64,000 bases of DNA from Escherichia coli O157:H7. GTDB lineage: Bacteria > Pseudomonadota > Gammaproteobacteria > Enterobacterales > Enterobacteriaceae. Shown in pieces: positions 43,101 to 46,100 of the stretch; the first letter of the stretch is position 1, and the number at the start of each line of letters is the position of its first letter. The position numbers were made by a program. The DNA lies in assembly GCF_013167455.1 (NCBI RefSeq), contig NZ_CP038328.1. The stretch is one strand, 5' to 3'.

Positions 43101-46100
43101 AAGGCATTGAAAAGTACAATGACATCAACAAAGTCGAACCGATGAACCGGGCGCTGAAAGAACTTAACGCGCAAACCTGGTTTGCTGGCCTGCGCCGTGA
43201 ACAATCCGGCAGTCGCGCCAATTTACCGGTGCTGGCAATTCAGCGTGGCGTATTTAAAGTGCTGCCGATTATCGACTGGGATAACCGAACGATATATCAG
43301 TATCTGCAAAAGAATGGCCTGAAATATCACCCATTATGGGACGAAGGATATTTATCGGTGGGCGATACCCATACAACCCGTAAATGGGAACCCGGCATGG
43401 CGGAAGAAGAAACGCGTTTCTTTGGCTTAAAAAGGGAATGTGGGTTACACGAAGGGTAAATATTGCCGGATAAATTAAACGCCTCTGTCAGTAATGATGG
43501 GGGCGTTTTTATTTTGCGAGCAGCATTCCTGATTTTAAACGTGAACGCCGCTGGAAGAATTATCAGGTATAGAATGGCGTCGGGTGCTTGAGGCTGTCTG
43601 GCGTTAAGCATTCGCGAGGTTCCAGATGGACAAAAGCCCCAGGCGATATTTCTATCAACCTGAGGCTCGCGTTCGAACGTAGCAATTCGGATGTTAGTCT
43701 CTTCTTTGCAGGGAGGCAAGACATGCTAACAAAATATGCCCTTGTGGCAATCATAGTACTGTGTTGTACAGTACTGGGATTCACGCTCATGGTAGGCGAC
43801 TCGTTATGTGAGTTGAGTATCAGAGAGCGTGGTATGGAGTTTAAGGCAGTTCTCGCTTACGAATCGAAGAAGTAGCCACCACGCGGGGGTAAAACCCCGC
43901 GTATTGAATTGTGATGGTTTGGTCTCCTGTACCCTTTTTTAAATTTATATTTTTTATGTGAATATATAGTCTCTATTTATCATTATGAATTTCAAATGAA
44001 AATCATTAATTTATTCATAATATAAATGTTTATTGGCTGATATATATCACAGATAATTTTTAAAATATGCGTAAATATCCTTTAAGTTTACTGAAGGATA
44101 AAAATATTGTGACTTTCTTTGATTTCTGGGGAAAAACCCGACGTGGCGAGAAAGAGGGTGGCGACGGCTATCACCTTCTTTGCTGGCATTCGCTGGATGT
44201 GGCCGCAATGGGCTATTTAATGGTTAAAAGAAATTGCTTCGGGCTGGCTGATTACTTTCGTCAATTAGGGATTTCTGACAAGGAACAGGCGGCTCAATTT
44301 TTCGCTTGGTTGCTGTGCTGGCACGATATTGGAAAATTTGCCCGCTCTTTTCAGCAACTTTACCTGGCCCCTGAACTCAAGATTCCGGAAGGTTCCAGAA
44401 AGAATTACGAAAAGATCTCTCATTCAACGCTGGGTTACTGGCTGTGGAATTATTATTTAAGTGAATGTGAGGAGTTGCTTCCTTCATCTTCACTCTCTTC
44501 TCGTAAACTTACACGTGTAATAGAGATGTGGATGTCCATAACTACCGGGCATCATGGTCGACCACCTGACCGTATTGATGAGCTGGATAATTTTCTGCCT
44601 GAAGACAAAGCTGCCGCGCGAGATTTTCTCCTTGAAATCAAGGCACTGTTTCCGCTCATAGAGATTCCCACATTCTGGGATGATGACGAGGGCGTTGAAC
44701 TTTTAAAACAACTTTCCTGGTATATCTCTGCAACAGTCGTACTCGCAGACTGGACGGGTTCGTCAACGCGATTTTTTCCACGCGTCGCACACCCAATGGA
44801 TATTAAAGATTACTGGCAGAAAACTTTAGTTCAGGCTCAAAACGCCTTAACCGTCTTTCCTCCAAAAGCAGAAACCGCACCTTTCACCGGAATTAATACG
44901 CTGTTTCCTTTTATTGAGCACCCGACACCATTACAGCAAAAGGTACTGGATCTGGATATCAGCCAGCCAGGGCCACAGTTATTTATTCTGGAAGACGTGA
45001 CTGGCGCAGGTAAAACAGAAGCGGCGCTTATCCTGGCGCACAGGTTGATGGCTGCGAGGAAAGCACAGGGTTTGTTTTTTGGCCTGCCAACAATGGCAAC
45101 GGCCAATGCCATGTACGATCGGCTGGTCAAAACCTGGCTTGCTTTCTATTCGCCAGAGTCCCGCCCCAGCTTGGTGCTGGCACACAGTGCCCGCACATTA
45201 ATGGACCGCTTCAATGAATCACTCTGGTCCGGTGATTTAGTCGGGTCAGAAGAACCGGATGAACAAACATTCAGTCAGGGATGTGCGGCCTGGTTTGCCA
45301 ACAGTAACAAGAAGGCGCTACTGGCTGAAATTGGCGTCGGCACGCTGGATCAGGCGATGATGGCAGTGATGCCGTTTAAACATAATAATCTGCGGCTTCT
45401 GGGGTTGAGTAACAAAATCCTGCTGGCTGATGAGATCCATGCCTGTGATGCTTACATGTCGTGCATTCTTGAAGGGCTGATCGAGCGGCAGGCGCGTGGC
45501 GGAAACAGCGTCATTTTGCTTTCTGCTACGTTATCCCAACAGCAGCGCGACAAACTCGTCGCCGCCTTTGCGCGTGGCACAGAGGGCCAGCAAGAAGCTC
45601 CGTTCCTTGAAAAGGATGATTACCCCTGGCTGACGCATGTCACGAAATCCGATGTGAACTCACACCGGGTAGCGACGCGCAAAGACGTTGAGCGTAGCGT
45701 CAGCGTGGGTTGGCTTCATAGTGAACAAGAGAGTATTGCGCGTATCGAATCGGCGGTAAGTCAGGGAAAATGCATCGCCTGGATCCGGAATTCTGTCGAT
45801 GACGCTATTAAGGTTCATCGTCAGCTGCTTGCCCGCGGCGTCATTCCCGCTTCCAGCCTTTCACTCTTTCATAGCCGCTTTGCTTTTAGCGATCGCCAGC
45901 GAATTGAAATGGAGACGCTGGCACGCTTTGGTAAAGAAGACGGTTCACAGCGTGCCGGAAAAGTCCTCATTTGTACTCAGGTCTTAGAGCAGAGCGTTGA
46001 TTGTGACCTGGACGAAATGATCTCCGACCTGGCCCCTGTTGATTTGCTGATTCAGCGAGCGGGGCGATTACAGCGGCATATCCGCGATATTAATGGTCAG

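Follow-up and report, generated by a model that had tools for sequence, protein, structure and literature searches.

An intact chromosomal hok/sok-type module between cysH and cas3 in Escherichia coli O157:H7 with a conserved predicted antisense RNA and without an R1-type mok start

The region at 43560–43940 of the window (the whole 64,000-nt stretch of Escherichia coli O157:H7 DNA that was analysed) is very probably an intact chromosomal hok/sok-type type I toxin-antitoxin module, of which E. coli K-12 carries a remnant annotated as sokX. The cysH-linked module is already known, and it is ordinary except for a missing classical mok leader frame. The RefSeq annotation places the hok gene between cysH and cas3, in agreement with the initial annotation, and names its product WP_000956458.1, a "Hok/Gef family protein". 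Approximately 125 nt separate the end of the module from cas3, which starts downstream and is read in the same direction. The window is 100% identical to O157:H7-type genomes. The earlier claim of a known hok/sok locus at this site is borne out by the K-12 sokX annotation and by published descriptions of hok/sok beside cysH in E. coli (PMC3903273; PMC12736100). The Rfam covariance model RF01794 matched 43582–43738 in the hok-sense orientation with 105.3 bits over the full model (1–157). The gathering score is 59 bits, and the match places the feature far beyond chance; the model also matches an R1-like plasmid locus in the hok-sense orientation. Weak Rfam matches to ctRNA_p42d and Spot_42 at 43417–43517 proved to be merely the cysH terminator hairpin. 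Among 5,426 complete genomes of E. coli, approximately 76% have at least 80% of the module. The range first proposed, 43560–43905, covers the span from the promoter −10 box to the 3′ hairpin, but the module runs about 35 nt further, and its 3′ end is completed by the fbi element and a T-run (Table 1).

Table 1. Features of the cysH-linked hok/sok module, with positions in the window.
Feature	Position	Strand	Basis or remark
hok promoter −10 box TAGAAT, no convincing −35	43570–43575	+	Conserved spacing to GGGTGC
Full-length hok mRNA, ~359 nt	43582–43940	+	Inferred from RF01794 start and conservation end
tac, 5′ translational activator element, GGGUGCUUGAGGCU	43582–43595	+	Pairs with fbi in full-length fold
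uORF-A, 18 codons, SD GAGG 43616–43619, probably not functional	43626–43682	+	Varies between strains
ucb AAGCCCC, anti-SD for GAGG 43662–43665	43634–43640	+	Pairs with GAGG in full-length fold
GAGG, homologue of R1 mok Shine-Dalgarno, no start codon after it	43662–43665	+	Alignment with Klebsiella and E. kobei
Sok-target stem-loop; loop CGUAGCAA 43678–43685	43669–43694	+	Compensatory changes; accessibility
uORF-B, 12 codons, candidate mini-mok	43691–43729	+	TAA stop overlaps hok start (AUGCUAA)
dcb GUCUC	43697–43701	+	Alternative pairing with hok SD or GAGG
hok Shine-Dalgarno GGAGG	43712–43716	+	Read from sequence; invariant in homologues
hok CDS, 50 aa + stop	43723–43875	+	Pfam PF01848; RefSeq WP_000956458.1; HokE identity; pN/pS
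3′ stem-loop, inferred 3′ end and protector of processed mRNA	43881–43902	+	Fold; conservation; R1 analogy
fbi, fold-back inhibitory element, GGUCUCCUGUACCC	43921–43934	+	tac duplex, conserved in homologues
T-run, presumed transcript end	43935–43940	+	Conservation stops in strains with different downstream neighbours
Sok promoter: −35 TTGCCT 43719–43714, 17-nt spacer, −10 TAACAT 43696–43691	43691–43719	−	Invariant in homologues
Sok antisense RNA, ~56–59 nt	43683 to ~43628	−	K-12 sokX mapping; fold

The toxin frame extends from ATG 43723 to TAG 43873–43875 and is preceded by the GGAGG at a spacing of 6 nt, so the 50-aa ORF with a strong Shine-Dalgarno (SD) sequence that had been noticed initially was recovered. 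Its assignment to the Hok/Gef family of type I toxins also stood. The Pfam profile HOK_GEF (PF01848) covers Hok residues 5–46 with 39.1 bits (cut-off, 22 bits; E = 5.7e-10) and is matched at positions 1–42 of 42, and the matches to the NCBIfam HokA and Hok-family models fell under their strict cut-offs. Residues 5–24 form a hydrophobic stretch. Reading the sequence, we found C14, T16, L28-C29-E30, E39 and Y46-E47 to be counterparts of conserved family positions, which are given as C16, T18, L30, C31, E32, E41 and Y48 (preprint 10.1101/2025.08.07.668861). HokE of K-12, with which the peptide shares 78% identity, is reported to be toxic when overexpressed (preprint 10.1101/2025.08.07.668861), and from this identity the Hok peptide of the window would be expected to be toxic. 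The pN/pS ratio against homologues was 0.00–0.31. Within E. coli there were 5 synonymous and 0–1 non-synonymous differences (pN/pS ≤0.06); judged from these substitutions, the hok codons are under purifying selection, which is strong even within the species. The frame was described as uninterrupted, and it is indeed full in the window, whereas in K-12 all sequence past the hok ATG has been deleted. A 95-codon in-frame ORF from TTG 43588 was rejected, as its start lies within tac and a 1-nt indel closes the frame in other strains.

RNA conservation and covariation were compared across 12 diverged homologues. A TAnnAT hexamer stands exactly 6 nt upstream of an invariant GGGTGC, the beginning of tac, in all 12, even though the upstream flanks are unrelated; the site scores under the threshold of the promoter scan. 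The RF01794 match begins at 43582, and on the R1-like plasmid locus the model begins at the mRNA 5′ sequence GGCGCTTGAGG. We infer from these alignments that hok transcription starts at 43582. At the other end, conservation across different genomic arrangements stops directly after CACCCTTTTTT, which was taken as the 3′ end. A search for a local terminator hairpin before the T-run gave none (−2.3 kcal/mol, z = +0.76). The full-length mRNA has a predicted minimum free energy of −135.8 kcal/mol (z = −4.84), and its 5′ and 3′ ends are paired in this fold. The tac/fbi duplex is predicted at −19.8 kcal/mol, a value reached by 0 of 1000 shuffles, and an fbi-type element ending 27–35 nt past the 3′ hairpin is present in all 12 homologues. 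Both sides of the duplex have changed together (U7-A to C7-G; G12-C to A12-U). In predicted folds of shorter transcripts, tac pairs with nt 20–32 or with ucb instead. The stable hairpin expected after the ORF was found at 43881–43902 with −17.7 kcal/mol (z = −3.3; 1 of 200 shuffles as good); it is kept in homologues with compensatory variation, and its R1 equivalent stabilises the truncated mRNA (PMC9841398). All of the hok mRNA fold elements sought as a check of the initial annotation (tac, fbi, ucb, dcb and the 3′ stem) are thus present and conserved.

The leader between these ends is predicted to act as a switch. The GAGG at 43662–43665 aligns with the GAGG that precedes an AUG in the Klebsiella and E. 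kobei homologues. Its predicted partner is ucb in the full-length mRNA and dcb in the truncated mRNA. The ucb/GAGG hairpin is 89.7% paired across homologues, but it is uninformative on covariation because its sequence is invariant. The dcb element is predicted to pair with the hok SD in the full-length fold and with GAGG once the mRNA is truncated and free of Sok. When bound Sok was mimicked by blocking nt 47–102, dcb went back to the hok SD in the predicted fold. The Sok-target loop, which is complementary to the Sok 5′ end, had an unpaired probability of 0.46 in the full-length mRNA; in the truncated mRNA, from which fbi had been removed, this rose to 0.99. The folding models therefore predict both a ucb/GAGG to GAGG/dcb switch and exposure of the target loop in the truncated mRNA. 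The GAGG/dcb and target-hairpin pairs were 94.5% paired, compared with 35–49% in slid controls; four pairs had changed on both sides, and the covariation score was reached in 0 of 500 shuffles. Compensatory changes were seen in the target stem at columns 106/133, 111/128 and 113/127, and between dcb and GAGG/GGGG at column 98/139, where A-U has become G-C in three homologues. The compensatory changes among the 12 homologues support the proposed tac/fbi pairing and the Sok-target helices.

The initial annotation recommended a search for an antisense promoter and terminator on the minus strand, and this was successful: TTGCCT-17-TAACAT is followed by a hairpin with UUUU. All 12 homologues keep the hexamers and the 17-nt spacing (the −10 box being TAACAT or TACCAT). 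The promoter matches 8 of 12 consensus positions, which is under the scan threshold. The annotated 5′ ends of SokX and SokE in K-12 lie 8 nt downstream of this −10 box, and the K-12 sokX annotation (b4701) maps onto 43683–43626. The RNA is predicted to consist of an 11-nt single-stranded 5′ tail followed by the terminator hairpin (−23.6 kcal/mol, z = −3.8), whose stem is complementary to the ucb/GAGG hairpin in the mRNA. The window thus appears to encode an antisense Sok in cis, which overlaps the toxin leader and has both a promoter and a terminator of its own. The sole minus-strand promoter-like site reported by the scan in the hok leader and start region was TTGCCA-16-TAGCAT (43750–43723, minus strand). 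It was rejected as the Sok promoter on three grounds: most strains have CAGCAT as its −10 box, K-12 has lost the site but nevertheless keeps sokX, and the annotated 5′ ends of Sok do not agree with it.

A mechanism can be proposed from the R1 paradigm together with the folding and covariation results, with RNA boundaries that are all deduced. A weak promoter would give rise to the hok mRNA in a closed form, in which tac pairs with fbi, ucb holds GAGG, dcb holds the hok SD, and the Sok-target loop is partly hidden. Slow 3′ trimming to the stable hairpin would strip fbi, and the leader would then refold, so that GAGG-dcb pairing uncovers the target loop and makes the hok ribosome-binding site available. 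Sok, whose promoter overlaps the hok SD region, would bind the exposed loop through its single-stranded 5′ tail, block expression and probably trigger cleavage of the duplex. If Sok were lost, the 50-aa membrane peptide Hok would be made and would damage the inner membrane. Translational coupling, if it is needed, could act only via the 12-codon uORF-B; alternatively, the GAGG/dcb/hok-SD switch may act directly.

The mok frame is where the module departs from the textbook arrangement. A mok frame and an antisense Sok had both been expected upstream of hok. Sok was found with a conserved promoter and terminator, but an R1-type mok was not: there is no AUG, GUG or UUG within 16 nt after GAGG 43662–43665, and at the position that in Klebsiella and Enterobacter homologues carries the mok AUG, all E. 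coli alleles examined read UCG. The three-gene arrangement of R1 parB, in which mok runs from just after GAGG across the hok start, is accordingly absent from this module. A 67-aa "mok-hok" protein with an E. coli-type Hok (P0002) was considered as an E. coli AUG allele. It was set aside because its contig, covered 1.9x, joins a Klebsiella-like 5′ half to an E. coli 3′ half and is probably a chimera of the assembly. Upstream ORFs are arranged differently in different E. coli strains owing to indels. uORF-A was rejected as mok, as strain Combat2C1 has ACG in place of its AUG, its stop and frame vary between strains, and it is missing from other genera. uORF-B is the only upstream ORF that reaches or crosses the hok start; it ends 4 nt into hok. 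It has no SD, and its AUG lies 8 nt past the Sok 5′ end. Starting from this invariant AUG, 11 of the 12 homologues have an ORF that extends to or past the hok start, in frame +1 or 0. However, conservation of the AUG is ambiguous because it complements the Sok −10 box.

It is conceivable, although we consider it doubtful, that the cysH-linked module, and the HokE clade generally, is a mok-independent hok/sok variant in which GAGG is a pure RNA decoy for dcb and the leader switches directly between three RNA states, with no translational coupling. If so, the former mok SD would no longer recruit ribosomes. Once the mRNA had been trimmed at its 3′ end, GAGG would capture dcb and free the hok ribosome-binding site, and Sok on GAGG would return dcb to the hok SD. 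This clade, lacking the textbook mok frame, offers a natural test of whether hok translation always needs leader-peptide coupling.

Another explanation, which we regard as unlikely, is that the module is an evolutionary relic, with an intact hok ORF that became translationally silent after loss of the mok start and is inactive in this strain. In R1, translation of hok requires translation of mok up to the hok initiation region (PMC9841398). Klebsiella and E. kobei have the AUG and a 67-codon in-frame mok-hok, in contrast to the UCG of all E. coli alleles sampled, and among complete E. coli genomes no AUG allele was found (best match, 97.1%). The indels in the leader uORFs point in the same direction, as do the K-12-type deletion, found in approximately 20–25% of genomes by a rough estimate from evenly spaced rows, and the insertion sequences (IS) in the 3′ hairpin of some other strains. 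Because many strains have lost the toxin or carry such an IS, the module is dispensable. However, the AUG is also missing from most homologues in other genera, and therefore it may not be ancestral. The strong purifying selection on hok within E. coli argues against a relic, as does the conservation of tac, fbi, ucb, dcb and the Sok promoter and terminator, all of which are intact. The hok SD has the consensus sequence and spacing and is predicted to be free in the truncated form. Moreover, ribosome footprints have been reported over the leader in O157:H7 EDL933 (93 RNA-seq and 28 Ribo-seq reads, RCV 0.63; PMC5331693).

That the element is not autonomous and instead regulates the neighbouring type I-E CRISPR-Cas operon, for example through a transcript or an AT-rich 3′ flank controlling the cas3 promoter, is highly improbable: its closeness to cas3 in the same orientation and the tracking of its presence with the cas-E variant (variant E2 is the only one without it; PMC3903273) would suit such a role, but the same module with an identical Hok adjoins iap in strains without cas genes (such as Nissle and Combat2C1), homologues occupy unrelated contexts across Klebsiella, Enterobacter, Citrobacter, Scandinavium and Pseudescherichia, and a survey preprint found hok not to be enriched near defence systems (12% observed, 9.4% expected).

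A scan of genome contigs with the 15-mer GATATTTCTATCAAC returned 120 stretches, nearly all of them chance matches in unrelated phyla and only four of them real homologues (L022, L023, L047 and L070). The phage collection, searched for distant DNA similarity, yielded no match, and the search of the plasmid collection returned mostly chromosomes mislabelled as plasmids, together with hokE copies.

The significance of the locus is small beyond its correct annotation: it is already annotated and belongs to the type I toxin-antitoxin family that has been studied best, and its place next to cysH and CRISPR-Cas already serves as a marker of E. coli CRISPR-locus arrangements. The RNA parts, which the RefSeq annotation leaves out here, can be placed to the nucleotide, and the module reaches past the toxin ORF and hairpin to the 3′ fbi element.

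Compared with known systems, the sokX locus of K-12 MG1655 (b4701) is orthologous. It has the same cysH-terminator flank, hok promoter, leader and Sok region, with approximately 96% identity up to the hok ATG. Nothing of the module follows the ATG in K-12, whereas the window keeps the toxin ORF, the 3′ hairpin and fbi. The closest named paralogue is hokE/sokE of K-12, whose peptide is 78% and whose leader is approximately 79% identical. It shares tac, ucb, the Sok terminator loop and the Sok promoter layout with the window and likewise has no AUG directly after its GAGG/GGGG element. However, it occupies another chromosomal site (ybdK), and the K-12 copy carries IS186 19 nt past the stop. The invariant upstream AUG of hokE shares the reading frame of hok (62 codons), whereas in the window it is out of frame and the stop overlaps the hok start.

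The hok/mok/sok (parB) locus of R1 has the same order of elements as the window: tac, ucb, GAGG, Sok target, dcb, hok SD, hok, 3′ stem-loop and fbi. In both, the −35 box of the antisense Sok lies over the hok SD region, and both are matched by RF01794 (PMC9841398). The 70-codon mok of R1, which is needed for hok, begins 7 nt after GAGG within the Sok target, a start that the window does not have. The leader in the window is approximately 32 nt shorter, the Hok peptides are only distantly similar, and in the window fbi is followed directly by the T-run, without a separate terminator hairpin. The HokE-like loci of Klebsiella and Enterobacter (e.g., L129, L131 and L132) encode Hok peptides 84–92% identical to that of the window and have all of the same RNA elements. 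In contrast to the window, they have an AUG 7 nt after GAGG, which opens a 67-codon in-frame mok-hok. They lie in other genomic contexts, and in Enterobacter the module is duplicated in tandem.

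The locus between cysH and cas3 is a hok/sokX type I toxin-antitoxin module, which is annotated and already known. The ORF with a strong Shine-Dalgarno (SD) sequence that the initial annotation assigned to Hok/Gef is indeed a member of that family. Its start codon is preceded by GGAGG at a distance of 6 nt, and its peptide covers the entire Pfam HOK_GEF profile (39.1 bits; cut-off, 22 bits) and is 78% identical to K-12 HokE. RefSeq labels it 'Hok/Gef family protein' (WP_000956458.1), with cysH on one side and cas3 on the other. E. coli 2017C-4109 and O157:H7 strain Z1830 match the region at 100% identity. 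The proposed range of 43560-43905 covers the ORF and the stable hairpin noted after it, but the module extends to 43940. Weak Rfam matches to ctRNA_p42d and Spot_42 are sub-threshold, have no meaning and arise from the cysH terminator. The window also contains the CsrB small RNA gene (4242-4601, +; RF00018, 382.6 bits).

Features of the hok/sokX locus and its flanks
Feature	Position	Strand	Remarks
cysH stop codon	43457-43459		TAA
cysH intrinsic terminator	43477-43508	+	14-bp stem, then T-run
Sok RNA (predicted)	43683 to about 43628	-	from K-12 SokX 5' end and conserved promoter
Sok promoter (predicted)	-35, 43719-43714; -10, 43696-43691	-	TTGCCT, 17-nt spacer, TAACAT
uORF-B	43691-43729	+	12 codons; sole upstream ORF reaching hok
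hok ORF	43723-43875	+	50 codons; between cysH terminator and cas3 start
3' hairpin after hok	43881-43902		GC-rich; -17.7 kcal/mol, z = -3.3
cas3 start	44067

A chromosomal hok/sok locus is indeed known at this position in E. coli. The equivalent intergenic region of K-12 MG1655 bears the annotated small RNA gene sokX (b4701). The two sequences are collinear through the hok ATG, inclusive, and diverge after it; therefore, K-12 has kept the hok promoter, the leader and Sok and has lost the toxin, while the ORF is uninterrupted in the window. 'The hok sok system' beside cysH has served to mark CRISPR-locus arrangements and is missing solely in strains with the K-12-type cas variant (PMC3903273). 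Among uropathogenic strains, hok and sokX lie beside cysH in 90%, and the remainder have sokX alone (PMC12736100). A sequence search found at least 80% of 43560-43945 in 4,146 of 5,426 complete E. coli genomes; those below this coverage mostly carry the K-12-type truncation.

The Rfam model RF01794 ('sok') matches 43582-43738 (+) with 105 bits. On an R1-like plasmid locus, its match spans the mRNA 5' sequence GGCGCTTGAGG to the hok start, so the model is oriented in the hok sense and marks the leader of the hok mRNA rather than Sok itself. We infer nucleotide 1 of the hok mRNA to be 43582. A TAnnAT box lies exactly 6 nt before an invariant GGGTGC in 12 diverged homologues, drawn from E. coli variants, Klebsiella, Enterobacter, Citrobacter, Scandinavium, Pseudescherichia and E. 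albertii, and the DNA further upstream is unrelated.

The expected antisense Sok RNA is predicted on the minus strand, with a conserved promoter and a terminator hairpin. The promoter sequence and spacing are invariant among 12 homologues (-10 box TAACAT or TACCAT). The 5' end of K-12 SokX maps to 43683, 8 nt downstream of the promoter, and K-12 SokE has the same promoter-to-5'-end geometry. Sok folds into a free 5' tail of 11 nt followed by the terminator hairpin and UUUU (-23.6 kcal/mol, z = -3.8). The terminator stem and the ucb/GAGG hairpin of the hok mRNA are complements, which explains why no other DNA of the family is as highly conserved.

Conservation runs past the 3' hairpin to GGTCTCCTG(T/C)ACCC and a T-run (43921-43940), where it ends sharply; this boundary comes from comparing strains in which the module is followed by cas3 with strains in which it is followed by iap. 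This segment (fbi) and the mRNA 5' end (tac) are complementary. The duplex has an energy of -19.8 kcal/mol, equalled by none of 1000 shuffles, and the MFE fold of 43582-43941 pairs the two ends (z = -4.84). Folding of 43900-43941 gave no local hairpin before the module-end T-run (-2.3 kcal/mol, z = +0.76), and the only strong partner of the 14 nt before it is the mRNA 5' end. An fbi-type element is present in all 12 homologues, ending 27-35 nt past the 3' hairpin. Compensatory changes are found in Citrobacter and the hokE type (U7-A to C7-G) and in an Enterobacter MAG (G12-C to A12-U). The pairing corresponds to the lock that tac and fbi form in the R1 paradigm (PMC9841398).

Several homologues from other genera have a separate hairpin beyond fbi, which resembles a terminator in Citrobacter and E. 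albertii. In some E. coli, such as strain 2452, the 3' hairpin that follows hok is interrupted in its 3' arm, after ...GTAAAACCC, by an IS421/IS186-family element, and fbi is thereby separated from the hok mRNA. A rough estimate from evenly spaced search rows puts the frequency near 12% of genomes. K-12 hokE has IS186 at the corresponding site, 19 nt past the stop.

In R1, mok starts 7 nt past GAGG, within the Sok target, and must be translated up to the hok initiation region (PMC9841398). The Klebsiella and E. kobei homologues have AUG at this position, opening a 67-codon frame in phase with hok, whereas all E. coli alleles examined have UCG. A search for the AUG allele against complete E. 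coli genomes returned nothing nearer than two mismatches. On this sequence evidence, the overlapping mok frame that the initial annotation expected is absent in its R1 form from the window locus. The window allele has a 1-nt deletion within the Sok-target loop. uORF-A (43626-43682) is not conserved and was ruled out as mok. The AUG of uORF-B is invariant, yet on the complementary strand its bases belong to the Sok -10 box; this AUG lies 8 nt outside the Sok 5' end, has no SD and falls in the hok frame in other homologues. The uORF-B stop (TAA in the window, TGA in others) overlaps hok codons 2-3. uORF-B may act as a mini-mok, or the GAGG/dcb/hok-SD switch alone may be sufficient.

A 5-nt deletion (AGGCA) equivalent to 43714-43718 characterizes a variant that is widespread in E. 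coli (L141; P0006 lineage, at least 424 contigs). It removes part of the hok SD and the Sok -35 box and joins the upstream ORFs to hok in an 81-codon frame; in another genome, a 1-nt insertion creates an 83-codon fusion of upstream ORF and hok. An ENA contig (L139, 695 nt, 1.9x coverage) has a Klebsiella-like leader up to the mok AUG, and its remainder, iap flank included, is identical to sequence of the E. coli Nissle type. This contig is probably an assembly chimera; a real recombinant is less likely.

The toxin at this locus may be silent, but several results argue against this: the Hok codons are under strong purifying selection (within E. coli, 5 synonymous versus 0-1 non-synonymous differences; between genera, pN/pS of 0.13-0.31), the RNA elements are all intact in the window, and low-level RNA-seq and ribosome-footprint reads have been reported for the EDL933 leader (PMC5331693). 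With the G after it, the Tyr46 codon makes up a UACG motif (43858-43861) within a possible small hairpin; a recent preprint (10.1101/2025.08.07.668861) tied this motif in hok genes to A-to-I editing by TadA, which would recode Tyr to Cys. A role in CRISPR-Cas regulation is unlikely, because a module with identical Hok adjoins iap in strains without cas genes, homologues in other genera lie in unrelated contexts, at times tandemly duplicated, and a recent survey (preprint) found no enrichment of hok genes near defence systems. Tandem copies about 480 bp apart occur in two Enterobacter-type genomes (L131, 972-1653; L132, 1501-2131), with identical Hok peptides and different promoter-proximal flanks.

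The mRNA fold elements that had been sought (tac/fbi, ucb/GAGG and dcb) are predicted to be present. Across the aligned leaders, pairing of the GAGG/dcb stem with the enclosed Sok-target hairpin reaches 94.5%, versus 35-49% in slid controls; four pairs are altered on both sides, and the covariation score was reached by none of 500 shuffles. The closed ucb/GAGG hairpin, to which the Sok terminator stem is complementary, is conserved but invariant in sequence and thus yields no covariation evidence. Partition-function folding predicted that, in the full-length state, tac pairs with fbi, GAGG (43662-43665) with ucb, and dcb with the hok SD, with a P(unpaired) of 0.46 for the Sok-target loop. After truncation at the 3' hairpin, tac would pair with nt 20-32 and GAGG with dcb; the loop would be open (P(unpaired) 0.99) and the dcb/hok-SD pairing nearly absent (summed probability 0.1). 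When nt 47-102 of the truncated RNA, including GAGG and the target loop, were blocked to mimic bound Sok, dcb returned to the hok SD (summed pair probability 3.7). The observation of a hok gene is confirmed, and its interpretation is supported except for the mok frame; the predicted switch follows the logic established for R1.
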